A stretch of DNA of 28,227 bases from an uncultured Pseudomonadales bacterium (lineage in GTDB: Bacteria; Patescibacteriota; Microgenomatia; UBA1400; PJMF01), in the NCBI GenBank assembly GCA_964621585.1, contig CAZULU010000003.1, positions 1 to 28,227 of the forward strand, written 5' to 3'. The translations under genes and the position numbers were made by a program. Of the stretch, positions 484 through 10,750 are shown in pieces; position 1 is the stretch's first letter; the number at the start of each line of letters is the position of its first letter. The notes beneath the pieces are model-generated. The model did not search any database and was not told the DNA's origin. It saw only the letters and a program-made list of their open reading frames with translations.

Positions 484-1197
484 TTAGAACTTTCTAAGTG
501 AGTAAAAAATGTGGTATGGATAAAAGATTCGACTATCAACTTTAAGGATTTCAAGGTTAACAGACTTTAAAGTTTCGGCAAATTTCTTCTTAGAATAGCC
601 TTTTCTACCAAGCTCCCATCCATGACTTGAATGCATTCCTTGCCTTTTCAAGAAAAATAATGGAAAAGCAATATTAAAATATGTTGGTTGATTTTTCTGG
701 AGATTAAGAAAATCAAATATAAATTCTATTTTTTTAAAGTAAAAGAACTGAAAAGCTATTGAGAGATATAGGCAAGCATACGGTAATGATATAACAACAT
801 GCTTTCTGCTAACTCTTCTTAATTCACTTAATGCTTGTGGAACTTCACTATAATGTAAGTGCTCTAACACTTCAAAAGCGCATACTACGTCAAACGAATT
901 ATCAGGAAAAGGTAAACTAGTAATATCAGCAACTACATCTGGAGAAAGATCGGGATTGTTATCGACTGTTACGTACTCATACCCTCTCTTTTTCATTGCA
1001 AACTCAGTAACTCCGGTACCTTTTCCTATTTCTAAGAAAGATACACCATGAGTTTTTTCTAAGATGTTAACGTGATACCAATAATCAATCCATCTGTTTA
1101 AACTGTCGTAGGTTTTTGCCAGGCTTTTATCACTAGCTTTTGGTTGTTTTGGCCGATGTTTGTGAACTTTATTCAGAATTTGGATTGCTTTTTTCAT
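484..1197 (-). CDS. Class I SAM-dependent methyltransferase (Methyltransf_11-like), probably glycan-modifying
   Basis: Motifs [39 protein letters not shown] and ELRRVS. Overlaps the end of fcl by 29 nt. The glycan substrate is inferred from context only. Confidence 0.85.
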
Positions 1198-2137
1198 ACC
1201 ACTCCACTGTTTTCTTTAATCCTTCAGCAAAACTCGTCTTCGACTCAAAGCCAAACTCTTCTTTGGCTCTACTGACATCAAGTTTGCGGCGAGGTTGGCC
1301 GTCGGGTTTACTTGTATCAAAGGTAATAGTCCCTTCATAGCCAACTACCTTCGCCACCGTTTCGGCTAGTTCTCGGATACTGATTTCAAAACTTGAGCCC
1401 AAATTGATGGGTTCTGCCCCATCATAGCGCTCTGCTGCCAATACGATCGCTTCTGCAGCATCCTCGACATACAAAAACTCCCGGGTAGGCTTGCCCGTGC
1501 CCCAGACTGTCACTGAAGAAAGTCCTTGTTTTTTGGCTTCCACAAACTTACGAATCAACGCTGGAATGACGTGGGATGAGTCAGGATCAAAGTTATCCTT
1601 CGGACCATAGAGATTTACAGGCAACAGATAAATCGAGTTAAAATCATATTGTTGACGATATGCTTGGCCTTGCACCAACATCATTTTCTTTGCTAAGCCA
1701 TAGGGAGCATTGGTTTCTTCTGGATAGCCATTCCACAACTCATCTTCATGAAATGGGACAGGAGTAAACTTAGGATAGGCACAGATAGTGCCGATAGCCA
1801 CAAATTTACTGACACCTGCTTTACGAGCTTCTTCCATCAGGTGAACACCCATCAGTAAGTTGTCATAGAACAACTCGCCGGGATGCTCCTGGTTGTACCC
1901 TATACCACCCACATTTGCAGCCAGATGGATTACCACATCTATATCCTTCACTACTTCTGCACATACTTCCTGTTGACGAAGATCATGGGTTGATGAGCGA
2001 GGAATACGCAACTCCGTCAGCTCAAATTGTTGGAGTATCTCCACAATATGAGAGCCCAAGAAACCGGCGCCTCCTGTCAACAATACCCGTTTACCTCGCC
2101 AAAAAGTGGGATCATGAAGTTCATTGAGACTTTGCAT
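1169..2137 (-). CDS. fcl: GDP-L-fucose synthase (GDP-4-keto-6-deoxymannose epimerase/reductase)
   Basis: TGGAGFLG Rossmann motif; [12 protein letters not shown]; GTICAYPK; [12 protein letters not shown] (YxxxK); [12 protein letters not shown]; [15 protein letters not shown]; [11 protein letters not shown]. These are the hallmarks of the Fcl/WcaG family. Confidence 0.9.
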
Positions 2138-2142
2138 AATGA

Positions 2143-2415
2143 TTATTCTCCCTTAGAAAAAGTTGCAGCATCAATTCCATCAGGCCCGCTTAACGGGGTG
2201 TTCTTAGTGGTTTCTCCAGTACCTCCATCCAGTAGTTCAGCCTCACGAAGGGTCTGATAGTCTCTGGCAACAAACACCGCACGAAAAACATCTTGATCAC
2301 TTATTCTGTGCTTTTCAGCTAACCGACTAATTTCTGACAAATTGGGATGATCGAAGGATCCTACTGATTCGGTAATATCACGCACAAGATTTTTGTATTG
2401 TTCTTCGGAGAGCAT
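2143..2415 (-). CDS. Hypothetical protein, 90 aa
   Basis: Fills the space between two genes exactly (13 nt and 5 nt gaps), co-oriented, ATG start with AGGTG 7 nt upstream. No motif recognised. Confidence 0.6.
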
Positions 2416-2428
2416 AGTGGGGCACCTA

Positions 2429-3277
2429 TTATTTAATTAATCCGTACACAAATTGTATCAATCTGTTGTGTAGAGAGTGTAAACCAATCAGAACAGGATT
2501 GGAAGTATAACGCTGAGCAACTTGAAGCTCTTCTTGAAATTGTTTGGTAAACTGCGAACCACCTTTGGACAAGCCATGAATTCGAAATGCTGCTAATGGT
2601 TGTGCGAGAAGGATTGGCTCACCAGCAGTTTTTCTGAGGCGTAGCCAGTACTCGTAATCCATCGTGTAGCGAAGGGCTGTATTAAACAAACCAATCTGTT
2701 GGATAGCTTCCCATTTAATGAATGTCGCTGGTTGGGGATACGGATTGAGGATAAACAGAATCCAAGACGGAAAGATTGTGCGAAAAAACTGCTTATACCA
2801 ACGAACTGGTCGCTGGATTTCTTTGTTGTGCTCATCGATGATCACTGCGTCCCCGACTACCCATTGTTTGTCTGGGTTCTGTTGAAACGCCTCAACTACT
2901 TTTGTAAAAGCATCCGGTAGATAGTAATCATCAGAATTGATATACGCAAAGACTTCTAAAATGTCATCCTCGCGAAGGCGGGGATCCATATTGGGAAGTG
3001 AATCAGGCATGGATTCCTGCCTTCGCAGGAATGACGAGAGTCCTTTATTTATTGCATCAGTTTGACCTTTATCCTTTTCTGACTTCCACCGTACCTCTTT
3101 TCCATATGTCCTAAGGATCTCCACACTCTCGTCAGTCGATTTGGCGTCCATCACCACATATTGCACCTCAATCTGCCTAGAATGTTGTGCGAGAACCGAA
3201 TCAATTGTTTGTTTCAAAAACTGAGCCTGGTTAAAGGAAGGAGTGACAATATAGAAGATTGCAGTAGGTTGTGACAT
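2429..3277 (-). CDS. Glycosyltransferase family 2 (WfgS/WcaE-like), carrying an in-frame REP-like insertion
   Basis: IVTPSFNQAQFL, VMDAKSTD, DKGQTDAINKG, AYINSDD, PQPATF, YTMDYEYWLR, AAFRIHGLSK. Confidence 0.9.
   Translation of the reverse strand: MSQPTAIFYIVTPSFNQAQFLKQTIDSVLAQHSRQIEVQYVVMDAKSTDESVEILRTYGKEVRWKSEKDKGQTDAINKGLSSFLRRQESMPDSLPNMDPRLREDDILEVFAYINSDDYYLPDAFTKVVEAFQQNPDKQWVVGDAVIIDEHNKEIQRPVRWYKQFFRTIFPSWILFILNPYPQPATFIKWEAIQQIGLFNTALRYTMDYEYWLRLRKTAGEPILLAQPLAAFRIHGLSKGGSQFTKQFQEELQVAQRYTSNPVLIGLHSLHNRLIQFVYGLIK
2962..3036. repeat. Inverted doublet of CGTC-type REP-like palindromes (REPIN/RPE-like), in frame within the GT2 gene
   Basis: Left arm 2963-2989 GTCATCCTCGCGAAGGCGGGGATCCAT matches the reverse complement of right arm 3009-3035 (GTCATTCCTGCGAAGGCAGGAATCCAT) at 22/27 positions, with a 19-nt spacer. 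Each arm is itself an 8-bp hairpin with a GAAG loop. The outer tags are TGTC and CGTC, and the tag-to-tag length is 75 nt. Confidence 0.85.
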
Positions 3278-3280
3278 GGC

Positions 3281-3619
3281 TTATTTTCCAGTAGATCTAG
3301 CGTCATCAATAGCCTGTTTGCGCACCGTCCGTTCGAGCTTCTTTTCTAGTTTTTTGATGCTGATCCGATTAAAGATAGTAATGGTTCCTAAGATCATAAA
3401 CGCCAAAATAACGATAGCATCAAACACTCGACCAATATGCAGCACTTCAGCCACATAGGACATCGTTTGAGGAAATATTGATAAAAATATAAAGCCAATC
3501 CAAATAGCAATCCATGCACCATACTCGAAACTGTCAAACACGTCTTTGTTTCGATGTATCCGAATAACATACATCATGAAAATGGCAAATAAAATCGTGA
3601 AAATTTGAAAAAGTATCAT
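3281..3619 (-). CDS. Small membrane protein, DUF2304-like (3 predicted TM segments plus C-terminal helix)
   Basis: Family-like pattern WIAIWIGFIFLSIFPQ...AEVLHIGRVFD...KKLEKKLERTVRKQAI. Start moved from 3634 to the ATG at 3619, which makes an ATGA overlap with the upstream GT2 stop and has GGAGG upstream. Confidence 0.8.
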   Translation of the reverse strand: MILFQIFTILFAIFMMYVIRIHRNKDVFDSFEYGAWIAIWIGFIFLSIFPQTMSYVAEVLHIGRVFDAIVILAFMILGTITIFNRISIKKLEKKLERTVRKQAIDDARSTGK

Positions 3620-4308
3620 AAACCTATCCTCCATTGTAGCAGTGAAAGCAAAATCTTAAGAGCTTCAATGCCATTCATACCTTTTTCTGTATCGTGATAA
3701 ATTGTTTCAATTTCTAGCACTTTATACGGAATCTTGGCTTTGGCAACTTTGGCGGCAATTTCTGTTTCTACTTCATATCCCAGCGAAGTCCAACGAACTG
3801 CTTGATACGCTTTTTTTGTAAGCCCTTTATAGCCAGAAGGGATATCCGGAACATACGAACCATACAGTACGTTAATCAAGACTGAAATACTCTTGTTGCC
3901 TAGAAAACGCAAAATCGGCATGCTCGCGGATGAAAACTTTCTGACTCCAAAAACAACCTCATTCCCTTCTGCAAAGGCTTTCACAAAGCGCTGGATTTCT
4001 TTGGGATCGTGCTGATCATCACTGTCCATAAAAATAACAGCACCTGCCTGAAGTTGTTTAAAAGCATACTCACACCCTGTTTTTAAGGCTGCTCCTTTAC
4101 CAAGGTTAATTTGATGTATAAGTACATGTTTAAGGTACTTATGAGCAATGGTTGAGGTCTTATCCGTTGAACCATCATCCACAAATACGACATTTGGTGT
4201 GAACTGTAGAACTTTTTTTAAAACAGATGCTAAGTATTTTTCTTCATTTAAACCAGGAATGATAACCCACACATCTTTTGCTGAGATGGTTTTAGTTGGT
4301 GTTGTCAT
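3616..4308 (-). CDS. GT2, polyprenyl-phosphate sugar synthase-like (DPM/DPG-synthase-like)
   Basis: VIIPGLNEE, VDDGSTDKT, NLGKGAALKTG, FMDSDDQHDP, VVFGVR, DIPSGYK, YEVETE. Confidence 0.85.
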   Translation of the reverse strand: MTTPTKTISAKDVWVIIPGLNEEKYLASVLKKVLQFTPNVVFVDDGSTDKTSTIAHKYLKHVLIHQINLGKGAALKTGCEYAFKQLQAGAVIFMDSDDQHDPKEIQRFVKAFAEGNEVVFGVRKFSSASMPILRFLGNKSISVLINVLYGSYVPDIPSGYKGLTKKAYQAVRWTSLGYEVETEIAAKVAKAKIPYKVLEIETIYHDTEKGMNGIEALKILLSLLQWRIGL

Positions 4309-5224
4309 GTTTTTTCCAATACTCTACAAAGTACTCCACAACTTCCTTAACACCATCTTCTAGCTGCACATGCGCTCGCCACCCCAGCTGTTCACGAGCT
4401 TTTGAGGCATCTGCGTACAATAATAGTGGATCTCCAGGGCGGGCAGGAAAATGTGTTACTTTGGCTGATTTTGCCATCGCTTTCTCGATTGCGTGGACGA
4501 TGTCGAGAGTGGAACTTGGCTGTTCCGTTGACAGATTGAAGTAGTGGTACTTCTCTGGTTCTCGATGACAGAGTTCAAGTGCTTTGAGATGAGCATCAAC
4601 AATGTCTCGTACATGAATGTAATCACGTTTATGCTCACCACTGCCCCATACGGTAACCTCTTGATCATTATAAATTTGTTCGATAAAACGAGGCATTGCA
4701 TGAGACTCAGGCTCATGATGTTCTTCAGGGCCATATAAGTTGAAATATCGAAGTCCGACCCCGGTCATGTTATGTGAAGCCACATAAGAATTAATCAACC
4801 CTTCCATGGCGAGTTTGGTCATACCGTATGGATTAATGGGCAAGGTTCGATCATCTTCTTGAATGGGCACTCGTTGAGGCTCACCATACACAGCTGCGCT
4901 TGAAGAGAAGATAATAGTACCAATGCCGTTGGTTTTCATTGCTTCCAAGATGTTTACTGTAGCTGACACATTAGAATCTATGAATTTTTGTGGAAATTTG
5001 ACTGATTCTCCAGCCTCAATCAAAGCTGCCAAATGAAAGACCACATCAGCATCCGTAATTTCTCTATTCATTGCTTCTAGATCACGAATGTCTGCAATGC
5101 TGGTGGGAAACTCAGGATTTTCTCTCAGATCGATGACTTTTACATCATATTGCGCGTGGTGTAATGCTCGACAGAGATGTTTGCCAAGAAATCCTGCTCC
5201 TCCAGTGACGATCGCTTTTGCCAT
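4292..5224 (-). CDS. galE: NAD-dependent UDP-sugar 4-epimerase, GalE family
   Basis: TGGAGFLG; HLAALIEAGESV; FSSSAAVYGEP; PINPYGMTK (YxxxK); LRYFN; HEPESH; RPGDP. Start moved from 5236 to the ATG at 5224, with GAGGT 6 nt upstream. Substrate (Glc or GlcNAc) cannot be determined here. Confidence 0.75.
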   Translation of the reverse strand: MAKAIVTGGAGFLGKHLCRALHHAQYDVKVIDLRENPEFPTSIADIRDLEAMNREITDADVVFHLAALIEAGESVKFPQKFIDSNVSATVNILEAMKTNGIGTIIFSSSAAVYGEPQRVPIQEDDRTLPINPYGMTKLAMEGLINSYVASHNMTGVGLRYFNLYGPEEHHEPESHAMPRFIEQIYNDQEVTVWGSGEHKRDYIHVRDIVDAHLKALELCHREPEKYHYFNLSTEQPSSTLDIVHAIEKAMAKSAKVTHFPARPGDPLLLYADASKAREQLGWRAHVQLEDGVKEVVEYFVEYWKKHDNTN

Positions 5225-5246
5225 ACAACACCTCATTTCTACTTGA

Positions 5247-6449
5247 TTATGAAATCCAGTATCCTTGAATAAATAGCATAATATTCACGATTAGTACTAT
5301 ACCGGATATTCCCAGGTAAGTATAGAATACCGGTTTTTTTTCGAACAATTGTGGAATGATGAAAAAGATTGGGAAGCAGACGAGCACGTATCTAGGCATG
5401 CTGGAGAATGTGCCCGTCAATGTAGGTAACAAAAACGCGGCAAAACTAAAGACTAATTCAGACACTTTTATTTTTAGTGAACGTTTGACGACTCCAACAC
5501 CAAGCAACACTAATACACCAATAGTCAAAAATAAATCTTGGACATACGAGAAGTATTTCCAATCAATCGGTCGAACTGTCAGTAAAATTTTGAGATATCG
5601 ATACATAACCTGAGGTAAAGTTACGATAGACTCTGATCGATTTGCGCCAAATTCAGACTGCACATGGAAAAAATAGAGCGGATCTTTAAAATCAATCCAT
5701 AGAAAAAGCATATAGAGAGAGAGTCCCGTCACACCTACGCTAATCCCGAGCAGCGCACGCCAACTCTTTCGGATAAAGGTAATAATAATTCGCAACACTT
5801 CGTTGATTGGCGTTGATCGCGTTATTTGGTATTGCTGGAAAAACAAATCAACAGCAAGCGCTGGTACCAAGAAAACACCAACTAAGCGAGTTGCAGAAGC
5901 AATTGCCACGCAGCACCCCGCCCAAAACCACCTCTTATTGCGAGCAAGTAAAAATGACAAGATTACCAGAAAAAGAAACAACGATTCTGTGTAGATACCT
6001 ACTAAGAAAAATGATGTGGGATACAGTAAAAAGGTAAGTACTGACTTCCACGCTATCTTTTGATTGAAACGCTGAGCCACATATTGAAAGAAAACGACAA
6101 TAAACAGTATGAAAAACAGATGAGAAATGATAAGACCAGTTGTTACATACGTGAAGCCTGTGGCAGCCTGGATCAAACGCATTAATAATGGATATACCGG
6201 GAAAAATGCCTGAGACAAACCCGCAAAATTGTATCCTTCCTGCGCAATCGTTATATAGTGGACCCCATCAAAATTACCCCAACTGTACAGCCACTGTGGC
6301 AACTGAGTCGAGTGTAAAAAGCCTTCAGCATACGGGAAAGAGGGAGCATATTCAAAAAAAAATTGAGAAGACTTACCAATAAAAAACAGCGCACATCGCC
6401 AGATAACTAACAAAATAATCAACTGTAGAAGTGTGCGTTTTGCTATCAT
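5247..6449 (-). CDS. GT-C-fold membrane glycosyltransferase, PIG-V-like mannosyltransferase family
   Basis: Polytopic hydrophobic pattern; WGNFDGVHYITIAQEGY, AFFPVYPLL, YTESLFL, ASATRLVG, SMPRYVLVCFP. Start is the ATG at 6449 or the GTG at 6455. Confidence 0.8.
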   Translation of the reverse strand: MIAKRTLLQLIILLVIWRCALFFIGKSSQFFFEYAPSFPYAEGFLHSTQLPQWLYSWGNFDGVHYITIAQEGYNFAGLSQAFFPVYPLLMRLIQAATGFTYVTTGLIISHLFFILFIVVFFQYVAQRFNQKIAWKSVLTFLLYPTSFFLVGIYTESLFLFLVILSFLLARNKRWFWAGCCVAIASATRLVGVFLVPALAVDLFFQQYQITRSTPINEVLRIIITFIRKSWRALLGISVGVTGLSLYMLFLWIDFKDPLYFFHVQSEFGANRSESIVTLPQVMYRYLKILLTVRPIDWKYFSYVQDLFLTIGVLVLLGVGVVKRSLKIKVSELVFSFAAFLLPTLTGTFSSMPRYVLVCFPIFFIIPQLFEKKPVFYTYLGISGIVLIVNIMLFIQGYWIS

Positions 6450-8210: not shown

Positions 8211-9068
8211 TTATTTGTTTGTGTTTTGTAATCGTTCAACCTCATACATTTCCCAGAGCTTCAAATAGGCAACGCAATGATGTAAGCCACTATATACCGC
8301 AAAGACAAATCCTGGATAACCATCAACAAATCCTTTGTGACGAATAAATAAACTAAACCAAGTACTAAATGGCTTAAAAAGCATGAATCTTAACGAATTG
8401 TAGAAAGAGATGGTAACTCTGGCATCTCTAAGCTGAGTAGCTTTAAAACTAGTATACGTATTCCATTTACGGAGATACTCTTCAAAAGTTGGGTTGCCAT
8501 AATGGAGTAGATGTCCGTTAGCCCATCCTACTTCTCCATCGACTACCATTTGCTCGTGTACATCCTTTTGTGGTAAGCGCGCTTTTCCTTTTTGATACAA
8601 CCTGATGACAGGATCCGGATACTGTCCACCCTTTTTTAAGAATGAGCCTAAAAACCAATTTTTGCGTTTCAGCCACCATGCAGCGGGCAAAGTGATATTA
8701 TCAATGTGTTTGTCATTCTTGACAGTCTCGTCATCCTGAACAATCCCGTCATCCTGAACTTGTTTCAGGATCTGACTATGCGTCTGCTGAATAAACAATG
8801 CTAATTCTTCGTCCACAATTTCGTCAGCATCAAGTTGCAATACTAGATCTCCTTTGGCTTTATCCATCGCCATTTGCTTATTGATATGAAAATTTGCCTT
8901 ATTGGTAGTTGAGTGTACTTTAGCCCCGAGTTTTTTGGCTAACGTTATAGTTCCATCAGTGGACTCGCCATCCACGATAATGATTTCATCAGCAAAACTT
9001 TTTACAGACTCTAAGCACTTCTGTAAATTTTTTTCTTCATTGTGAGTAGCAAGTACAACTGAAATCAT
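8211..9068 (-). CDS. GT2, WaaE/KdtX/LgtF-like beta-1,4-glucosyltransferase family, carrying an in-frame REP-derived insertion
   Basis: ISVVLATHNEEKNL, DEIIIVDGESTDGT, LQLDADE, RKNWFLG, YPDPVIRL, VHEQ, LLHY, GFVDGYPG. Confidence 0.9.
   Translation of the reverse strand: MISVVLATHNEEKNLQKCLESVKSFADEIIIVDGESTDGTITLAKKLGAKVHSTTNKANFHINKQMAMDKAKGDLVLQLDADEIVDEELALFIQQTHSQILKQVQDDGIVQDDETVKNDKHIDNITLPAAWWLKRKNWFLGSFLKKGGQYPDPVIRLYQKGKARLPQKDVHEQMVVDGEVGWANGHLLHYGNPTFEEYLRKWNTYTSFKATQLRDARVTISFYNSLRFMLFKPFSTWFSLFIRHKGFVDGYPGFVFAVYSGLHHCVAYLKLWEMYEVERLQNTNK
8711..8773 (+). repeat. CGTC-type REP-like hairpin plus two truncated or degenerate 18-nt tandem copies, in frame (antisense) within the GT2 gene
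   Basis: 8747-8773 is CGTCATCCTGAACTTGTTTCAGGATCT, with a perfect 8-bp stem ATCCTGAA/TTCAGGAT and loop CTTGT. It is preceded at an exact 18-nt period by CGTCATCCTGAACAATCC (8729) and TGTCATTCTTGACAGTCT (8711; 12/18 identical to the 8729 unit). Confidence 0.75.
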
Positions 9069-9086
9069 AGTGATCTTTCTTGAATG

Positions 9087-9095
9087 ATTATAGCA
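9087..9095 (-). promoter_or_regulatory. Putative extended -10 promoter (TGCTATAAT)
   Basis: Perfect TGnTATAAT consensus in the 35-nt gap, ending 18 nt before the ATG at 9068. Confidence 0.55.
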
Positions 9096-9103
9096 AGTTT
9101 CAC

Positions 9104-10750
9104 CTAGTATTCCTTAACTTTCCATGAGTTACCATTCCAATACAATAGCACTTGTTCATTGAATCGATCATTTTCGTCTTTAATAAATCGATATCTACTC
9201 ACTTGTTCTCCATACCGGAAATTAATTGTATCTGAATTTTGCTTTACAACGGAATTGAAAAAATCTTGCGGAGGGATCTGCAGATACCAGGCTGTCAGAA
9301 CATAATGAAATCCTCGAGTATCAATGACGGCAACCGGCTCGCCAGGATAATCTTGCTCGATCTGTTGTAACACGTCGTCATATCCAGGCTGTAATATTGA
9401 TTGGTATTTCGTACTATCCTTGTACTGCAAAAAGTAAAACTGTAGATACGAACTGGCTTCCCAAACAAGAATCATCATGAAAAATCCCATCCATAGTATT
9501 CTCGTTATCTCTGGGTGAGAAGCTACTTTACTCAGCATGTAGCCGATAAGTTTTACGCCTTTGATACTTACTATTGAAAGGATAATGAAAAAAAGTAGTG
9601 TGCGCGTTGCATGAGGAGCGTTCACAGTGATGCTGGCCGGAAATAAGGATACTACTAACACCCAGAGTAACAGCAAGTCATTCCACTGCAGTATTGGTTG
9701 CTGCACTTTTCGATGGTGCACCAGTCCAATGACCACATGAATGAGATTGTATAAAACTCGGCCCAACAATACCCCTATCCCAAGTAATCCAAAAGCGAAA
9801 ATAGAGACATAGACATATCCCCTATCTGGTACGGCATGCCACGGATGTCCACCAGTGTTGTACAAAAGAAAAGAAGGATCAAAACTTGCAATATAATTTC
9901 TTGAGATTTTTGTAAGATAGAATACATACTGGTTACCGAAGATTGTTTGCCAGATACCGGAAAATGATGATCGGTAAGGAATATATTCTGCTATAAATGT
10001 GCTTTCTGAAAAGATGGTGATTTGACTTTTTTGCTGATTAAATGACTGAAGTGCTACAAAGCAACTCGACCAAACTCCAAACATTATGAACAATGTGATC
10101 AACCACTTTTGCCAGTGCTTTACTCCGCGCAAAAATGGTAAAGGCATTACCACTAAGGGAATCAATAAGAATGGAGCATTGTAGGTAAAGTATGATACTC
10201 CAACCAATATGACAGCTAATCCATCATATAGATATTGTTTTGGTCGTACCTTGTAGAGTAAAACCATTACGGCCATAGTCAACGCCAATGCGACCATTGC
10301 TTCAAAGGCTACGCGTGAATAAAAAATAAATACAGGGAGCAAGGCTACTACGGCTGCTGCAATTCCGGATTGTCGACGAGAAAGCAAGAATAGTGAACTC
10401 AACTTATAGGTGAGAAAAATGATAGCTGTACCAGCTGCTGCTGCCCAGAATCGAACTGCAAAATCACTATAACCGAAAACTAAAAAAGCTACAGTTGTTA
10501 ACAGAGGATATACAAAGGGTTTTTGATCTCCAAATGCTTCAAGAATGATAGGCCACCGTCTCCCCCATTCATCCGTTCCAGTCTCGCGTAGCAGATAGGC
10601 GTTATATGCAATTGAAGCTTCATCTGGGTTAAGTATAGCGGGGATCGCTCCGAGTTTATAAAAACGGCTAATAACAGCGACAACAATAACAGCTGCTATA
10701 AACCATGGAAATAATTTGATGATAGAGTCAAATAGTACTTTCAATCGCAT
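9104..10750 (-). CDS. GT-C membrane glycosyltransferase (ArnT/PMT_2-like), array member 5 in transcription order
   Basis: Polytopic; PAILNPDEASIAYNAY..TGTDEWG..FGDQKP..FGYSDFAVR; late motif APHATR; soluble C-terminal domain. Start moved from the GTG at 10762 to the ATG at 10750, 1 nt after the upstream stop. Confidence 0.85.
   Translation of the reverse strand: MRLKVLFDSIIKLFPWFIAAVIVVAVISRFYKLGAIPAILNPDEASIAYNAYLLRETGTDEWGRRWPIILEAFGDQKPFVYPLLTTVAFLVFGYSDFAVRFWAAAAGTAIIFLTYKLSSLFLLSRRQSGIAAAVVALLPVFIFYSRVAFEAMVALALTMAVMVLLYKVRPKQYLYDGLAVILVGVSYFTYNAPFLLIPLVVMPLPFLRGVKHWQKWLITLFIMFGVWSSCFVALQSFNQQKSQITIFSESTFIAEYIPYRSSFSGIWQTIFGNQYVFYLTKISRNYIASFDPSFLLYNTGGHPWHAVPDRGYVYVSIFAFGLLGIGVLLGRVLYNLIHVVIGLVHHRKVQQPILQWNDLLLLWVLVVSLFPASITVNAPHATRTLLFFIILSIVSIKGVKLIGYMLSKVASHPEITRILWMGFFMMILVWEASSYLQFYFLQYKDSTKYQSILQPGYDDVLQQIEQDYPGEPVAVIDTRGFHYVLTAWYLQIPPQDFFNSVVKQNSDTINFRYGEQVSRYRFIKDENDRFNEQVLLYWNGNSWKVKEY

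Follow-up and report, generated by a model that had tools for sequence, protein, structure and literature searches.

An in-frame doublet of CGTC-tagged hairpins related to the Neisseria NTS/SRM system inside a glycosyltransferase gene of a CPR-like genome

The window analysed in this study, a whole stretch of 28,227 nucleotides, belongs to contig C3 of an 898-kb assembly with 125 contigs, 40.9% GC and 84% completeness. The genome looks CPR-like, as the first-pass annotation had supposed from the window: it amounts to 0.9 Mb, and relatives of the same family range from 0.7 to 1.5 Mb. Positions 2429-3277 on the minus strand of the window hold an open reading frame of 282 aa, which matches Glycos_transf_2 (PF00535) with E = 6.5e-17 in Pfam. 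It represents a GT2 glycosyltransferase of the GT-A fold with its SDD (DxD) motif at residues 115-117, and 45 invariant columns of the homolog alignment are kept. This gene is the host of the element described here.

A repeat search revealed two inverted arms inside the gene, located at 2963-2989 and 3009-3035, each 27 nt long, 19 nt apart and complementary at 22 of 27 positions (81%). By direct reading, each arm is part of a hairpin unit, and the two units face each other head-to-head with their tags outermost. Unit A (3009-3036, minus strand) is an NTS-like motif that consists of a CGTC tag, a perfect 8-bp stem ATTCCTGC/GCAGGAAT, the loop GAAG and a following CCAT. Unit B (2962-2989, plus strand) exhibits a TGTC tag, the stem ATCCTCGC/GCGGGGAT with one G.T pair, and again the loop GAAG followed by CCAT. 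The 19-nt spacer between them (2990-3008) was found at no other locus in the repeat search and the comparison of doublets. The full span 2962-3036 measures 75 nt, a multiple of three (the hairpin pair itself being given as 73 bases). Repeat search and direct reading thus bear out the inverted units, outermost tags, 22/27 identity and 75-nt length described initially. Folded as single-stranded DNA, the segment 2950-3050 reaches -23.2 kcal/mol, compared to -10.8 +/- 2.4 kcal/mol for shuffled sequences (z = -5.2), and 0.00 matches to unit A, exact or with up to 3 mismatches, are expected in the shuffled window.

In the protein, the element covers the third base of codon 81 plus the whole of codons 82-105 and yields SFLRRQES-MPDSLPN-MDPRLREDD, between the motifs AINKG and YINSDD. 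Unit A is translated as S-SFLRRQES-M and unit B, on the gene strand, as MDPRLREDD, while the spacer encodes part of PDSLPN. Hairpins of this kind leave five of their six reading frames open, and as the length is divisible by three, the doublet is simply translated. Codon differences to the ortholog L007 comprise 73 synonymous and 30 non-synonymous exchanges, which indicates purifying selection on the GT2 with the insert in place. The in-frame translation within an intact glycosyltransferase, as originally proposed, is therefore in good agreement with our data.

A hairpin system of this kind has been described by Chenal et al. (Nat Commun 2025, PMC11893778). In Neisseria, the NTS forms a hairpin of 28 nt that contains dRS3; NTS and its relatives, named "Ssn-related motifs" (SRM), flank the genes of SsnA, 94-aa single-domain GIY-YIG nucleases (cd10448). 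SsnA binds the hairpin as single-stranded DNA only and cuts a few bases upstream, where the three bases before the palindrome are critical for cutting and the C right after it for binding (PMC11893778). Here, both unit A and unit B retain the GTC tag and the C that immediately follows the palindrome, and the frame GTCAT...ATC is shared by both units of the doublet and all 12 genomic units of the A, B and NTS types. Unit A deviates from the published NTS consensus by three mismatches, of which two compensate each other as a C>T / G>A pair in the stem. The published degenerate SRM pattern is matched by unit B, and unit A fails it owing only to this compensatory pair. The likeness to dRS3 and CGTC-tagged REPs in geometry, already pointed out in the first-pass annotation, is confirmed.

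Genome-wide, the published SRM regex yields four matches (B units only) versus zero to five in shuffled sequences, so scans combining tag and hairpin were used instead. A scan for GTCAT, an 8-bp stem and C gives 20 matches, as opposed to 0-2 (mean about 0.5) in 20 shuffles. In total, about 18 hairpins were found at 12 loci. The A, B and NTS types account for 12 units at seven loci (searches with up to 6 mismatches): five A/B-type doublets on C3, C16, C22, C25 and C45, a pair of units on C18 that is 346 nt long, and one lone NTS-type unit on C54, one mismatch away from the Neisseria NTS consensus. Every doublet (n = 5) as well as the C18 pair combines one A-type with one B-type unit, tags outermost, the partner unit on C16 being a longer-stemmed variant. 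The spacers of the doublets comprise 9-20 nt and are mutually unrelated in sequence; as they differ from doublet to doublet, nothing points to a recent duplication of complete doublets. A target-site duplication was visible at none of the six loci inspected.

The tag-plus-hairpin scan also uncovered a third hairpin type with the stem ATCCTGAA, which is present in six units at five loci. One of them lies in the window itself (8748-8776, plus strand), where a CGTC tag, the stem ATCCTGAA/TTCAGGAT, the loop CTTGT and a following C are found in frame within a second GT2 (ORF 8214-9113, minus strand). Further sites are C4:23167, C16:11341, C18:7309 and the only head-to-head doublet of this type in the genome, C22:599-676, again with the tags pointing outwards. 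Three of the 12 loci are located inside genes and the other copies are mostly intergenic; the dispersed palindromic family that had been postulated from a single copy does exist. The single NTS-like unit on C54 (positions 108-132, locus L130) resides in the N-terminal substrate-binding domain of a SpoU/TrmH-type methyltransferase (PF22435) and is translated as LDSRLRGNDG. Orthologs of this methyltransferase (39-69% identity) have the same length at this site within one residue and carry no hairpin, from which it follows that the C54 hairpin replaces about nine native codons and adds none.

The pair on C18 encloses a gene. Unit A (3345-3369, plus strand) ends shortly before, and unit B (3666-3690, minus strand) begins shortly after, an open reading frame at C18:3372-3659, leaving gaps of 2 nt to unit A and 6 nt to unit B. 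It encodes a 95-aa protein that matches the GIY-YIG domain PF01541 over residues 3-78 with E = 6e-18. In an alignment of 20 homologs, Y7, Y18, R28, H32 and E65 are invariant, and Y7/Y18/E65 correspond, with an offset of one, to the catalytic residues Y6/Y17/E64 of N. meningitidis SsnA (PMC11893778). Homologs of similar length (about 95 aa) with 60-79% identity number more than 5,000 and occur in unrelated phyla, and neither the PDB sequence search nor NCBIfam returned an informative relative of the protein. By its sequence and the published description of N. meningitidis SsnA, the gene is assigned to the SsnA type and probably belongs to the Ssn family. It is the only repeat-flanked gene in this genome.

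Four other small GIY-YIG genes of a different subfamily were noticed on C17 (9890-10105, L004), C23 (1915-2121, L003), C87 (218-436, L001) and C93 (1829-2029, L005). Each adjoins a tRNA gene (Glu, Leu, Ser and Arg, respectively), and partial tRNA copies are found on the far side of the gene, as if it had been inserted into or beside the tRNA.

Among 61 genomes of the same family, the hairpin pattern is present in five, with 12, 31, 37, 2 and 1 copies, i.e., four genomes with at least two copies, while a reversed control pattern gives zero matches in all 61. An ssnA homolog at E < 1e-20 was detected in four of the 61, three of which carry at least two hairpins. B-type units recur in two relatives of the family, and heterotypic A+B doublets are found again in G006. 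In G066, 37 hairpins occur without an ssnA match at E <= 1e-8. In G006 and G066, 50 units were examined, and about 2 of them lie well within long open reading frames. As a separate observation, G066 also contains three B-type hairpins repeated in tandem every 34 nt, close to the 3' end of an open frame of 373 aa (C14:32323-32414, L190).

Beyond the family, the exact A-type 24-mer of unit A was retrieved from at least 120 loci in Bacteroidota, Chloroflexota, Nitrospirota, Proteobacteria, Planctomycetota and several CPR lineages. The layout of an SRM on the plus strand, a gene and an SRM on the minus strand is also seen in Pirellulales, Ignavibacteria and at other loci. In other genomes, 48 of 143 units form tags-out doublets at most 60 nt apart. 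An estimate of the in-gene fraction for other phyla, made by a crude ORF-spanning scan of 120 loci, was discarded as unreliable, because high-GC genomes yield spurious open reading frames.

The loop of the GT2 that hosts the element is hypervariable and varies in length. From AINKG to the (Y/F)xNSDD motif it counts 32 residues in the host GT2, compared to a median of 17 and a range of 10-45 in 109 homologs. The loop of about 9 residues assumed at first as usual was thus too low, and the net excess is roughly 15 residues rather than 22. Without the 25 codons of the element, only seven residues would be left, fewer than in any homolog, and the entry of the element therefore probably deleted part of the native loop. 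We infer that the element partly replaced this loop. In an AF2 model (overall pLDDT 89.2), the GT-A core exceeds 90, the helix 72-89 runs on into the insert, and the insert itself has a pLDDT of 54-77. Residues 90-102 are of low confidence, with a mean of 54 in one 10-residue block. Structural comparison with GT-A enzymes reaches Z scores of up to 24 (Z 24 for K4CP and Z 23 for WrtF). Whether the insert forms a surface loop had been proposed as a question for modelling: the position in the hypervariable loop stands and the insert is modelled as an excursion from the fold, with low confidence in exactly that part (pLDDT 54-77).

Syntenic orthologs with the gene order GT2 - DUF2304 - GT2 were recovered. 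In L007 (P0002), where the gene is 85% identical, the element persists, and a 134-nt tract (2919-3052) that includes it is identical to the window. The next longest identical run has 39 nt, and none of 20,000 permutations reaches 134. Within the 25 codons, about 6.5 synonymous differences are expected and none is seen. Along the synteny block of 5 kb, L007 diverges from the window in a mosaic fashion. Over window positions 1171-6300, stretches of near-zero difference alternate with stretches of 10-40%, e.g., 2160-2400 and the GT2 gene. Contigs from the metagenome runs X1, X4, X7 and X14 (sludge, bioreactor) all carry the element and show no variant at 2961-3069, so that the element and its locus-specific spacer are invariant in five independent assemblies, or six alleles counting the window.

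A different picture is obtained just outside unit B. The flank 2882-2961 is hypervariable, with many substitutions between the strains of the population contigs, and the allele of run X1 has a 27-nt in-frame insertion at 2950-2961, immediately outside the unit. The outer edge of unit B is precisely where both the divergent block of X1 and this indel stop. Enzymes of the SsnA type cleave on this side, a few nt upstream of the tag (PMC11893778), and the cleavage geometry may be tied to the variation of the flank. That an indel hot spot and one boundary of the mosaic both fall on the side of unit B where cutting is predicted is suggestive, on the basis of few alleles.

The ortholog L008 (P0004), at 58% identity, carries an A-B doublet that has decayed and that occupies the identical codon position, together with 20 extra residues at the same outer boundary as the X1 insertion. 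P0004 was left unplaced by the tree, and a grouping of the element-bearing genes in one clade, i.e., a single origin, is not rejected by the AU test (p = 0.36). Loops of L009 and the relatives L137-L140 are unalignable, and GT2 orthologs at 51-63% identity have unrelated loop sequences. An empty site, as had been suggested to look for, was found neither among the syntenic orthologs nor in the contigs of the four metagenome runs, and no recent transposition event was seen in either set. Two "skip" joints in run X14 had been considered as empty sites and were rejected as unreliable, since their sides span no more than 28-32 letters at 80% likeness. In P0064 (L204:1501-2379), the same GT2 loop holds a different GC-rich palindrome, read as FPARGWSALGGK, which swaps 10 residues of the sister protein's loop for 18. 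The loop appears to be a permissive site that is hit repeatedly.

With a probability of roughly 85%, we interpret the element as a head-to-head dimer of CGTC-tagged NTS/SRM hairpins, a gene-less version of the SRM-ssnA-SRM unit, that resides in a permissive loop of a GT2. SRM hairpins are recognised by Ssn nucleases as single-stranded DNA and nicked a few bases 5' of the tag (PMC11893778). According to this model, the doublets would be gene-less (MITE-like) derivatives of the SRM-ssnA-SRM unit; this is the best way to read them because they show the same A+B composition and geometry as the pair around the C18 gene. One such doublet would have landed in the permissive loop of variable length that connects helix 3 to strand 4 in the GT-A fold, and would be translated as 25 extra, probably disordered residues, with the enzyme remaining functional. 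The SsnA-type enzyme encoded on C18 presumably recognises these copies and acts on them, and the doublets may spread by single-strand nicking combined with host recombination or repair. As the genome encodes ComEC and DprA, single-stranded DNA taken up from outside could plausibly serve as a substrate, as it does in Neisseria. GIY-YIG enzymes hydrolyse DNA and are, to our knowledge, not known as strand-transferases, and a mobilisation driven by SsnA is for this reason unproven. Points that speak against our interpretation are the missing empty site and target-site duplication, the unconserved spacers, the deviation of unit A from the SRM regex, and the lack of an ssnA match in G066.

The doublet could also be kept as a cis element useful to the host and not as passive selfish DNA, if SsnA cuts incoming single-stranded DNA there and thus limits or bounds recombination tracts in a surface-glycan locus. 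The invariance of element and spacer in six alleles amid varying synonymous sites (0 differences versus about 6.5 expected in the comparison with L007) would fit this idea, as would the mosaic divergence from L007, the X1 block and 27-nt indel that stop at the outer edge of unit B, and the presence of ComEC and DprA. It would also agree with the situation in Neisseria, where the SsnA/NTS system modulates transformation and genes adjacent to dRS3 are more variable (PMC11893778). However, the argument relies on a handful of alleles, a recent spread of the segment by recombination could equally produce the invariance, the doublet is decaying in P0004, and most copies, here and in the relatives, are intergenic without an obvious pattern. 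We consider a selected cis function possible but rather improbable. A more far-reaching and more doubtful variant of these ideas combines both processes: SRM hairpins would enter coding loops by short-patch replacement instead of clean insertion and then act as fixed SsnA nick points, where indels and ends of recombination tracts pile up directly outside the tag and diversify the surface loops of glycan enzymes in competent CPR bacteria.

The first-pass annotation had named another enzyme and regarded the element as possibly mobilised by a RAYT (REP-associated Y1 transposase), in the manner of a REPIN. Doublet geometry, short GC-rich hairpins and several genomic copies would be compatible with such a mobilisation. 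But no PF01797 match (Y1_Tnp/RAYT) was obtained in the whole, 84%-complete genome, the tag is (C/T)GTC and not GTAG, CGTC-tagged REPs have, according to Di Nocera et al. (BMC Genomics 2013, PMC3733652), never been found around RAYT genes, and the sole repeat-flanked gene here encodes the 95-aa GIY-YIG protein of SsnA type. This makes a RAYT origin very improbable. Just as improbable is that the hairpins are attachment sites of an IS110/Piv-type recombinase or a filamentous phage, with the doublet as a scar of integration or excision: dRS3 is a known target of such elements in Neisseria (PMC11893778), but no IS110/Piv-type transposase was found in the genome and nothing phage-like beside any of the 12 loci inspected. 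A native loop shaped by protein selection, or a chance inverted repeat, is refuted by the additional copies: the length and variability of the loop in several orthologs are outweighed by both units recurring with identical tags and stems at six other loci of the genome, by the A-type 24-mer at no fewer than 120 loci across many phyla, by B-type units in two family relatives, and by orthologs at 51-63% identity with unrelated loops and shuffled sequences without matches.

From a biological point of view, the locus is a clean example that the Ssn/NTS hairpin system, as we interpret the element, reaches ultra-small genomes of the CPR type, and that its dimers can ride in frame in a working enzyme. 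The companion enzyme of CGTC-tagged REPs has been a question since 2013, and for this genome the answer is a GIY-YIG nuclease and not a RAYT. Some details may be worth further work, each resting on few alleles: the invariant element next to a hypervariable flank on the cut side, the decayed copy that a distant ortholog holds in the same position, and the replacement of a patch in another gene.

The element type, the pairing of hairpin and nuclease, and the in-frame occurrence are already published, and what is new is a member in a CPR-type genome. The initial remark that an element of this kind had not been described has to be corrected: intragenic CGTC-REP dimers are reported in PMC3733652 and the association of hairpins with a GIY-YIG gene in PMC11893778. 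In comparison with the NTS/SRM-SsnA system, the GTC tag, the AT...AT stem ends and the C after the palindrome are the same, a 95-aa single-domain GIY-YIG gene is flanked by hairpins on both sides with the C54 copy one mismatch from NTS, and hairpins and gene are patchy yet co-occurring. The host is different, being CPR/Patescibacteria-like and absent from PMC11893778. Furthermore, there are about 18 hairpins here and hundreds in Neisseria, the pairs are consistently heterotypic (A+B), and 3 of 12 loci lie in genes versus 2% reported for N. meningitidis. Chenal et al. left the mobility of NTS/SRM open (PMC11893778).

CGTC-tagged REPs, which mostly occur as head-to-head dimers and include Neisseria dRS3 as well as RPE-4 and RPE-6 of Rickettsia conorii, encode 20-30 aa in frame where their dimers are intragenic (PMC3733652). 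Our element agrees with them in the short stem-loop with a CGTC tag, the head-to-head dimers, the in-frame intragenic position and the lack of a RAYT. In contrast, the 2013 survey dealt mainly with Proteobacteria and named no dedicated enzyme, whereas here a partner gene is found in the same genome, and unit B carries TGTC next to the CGTC of unit A. REP/REPIN-RAYT systems resemble the present case in their doublets of short hairpins and in a single-copy gene flanked by its own repeats (REPtron-like), but differ in the tag, which is (C/T)GTC here instead of GTAG, and in the enzyme, a GIY-YIG hydrolase instead of an HUH/Y1 transposase, with no RAYT found. Rickettsia RPE-1 is likewise selfish palindromic DNA that is translated in frame and tolerated at protein surfaces; by its description it spans about 100-150 bp and is conserved as a whole unit, while here only the two 28-nt hairpins are conserved and not the spacer. 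Finally, with regard to a possible MITE nature, the inverted ends of the doublet are the same as those that flank ssnA, but no target-site duplication is visible at any of six loci.
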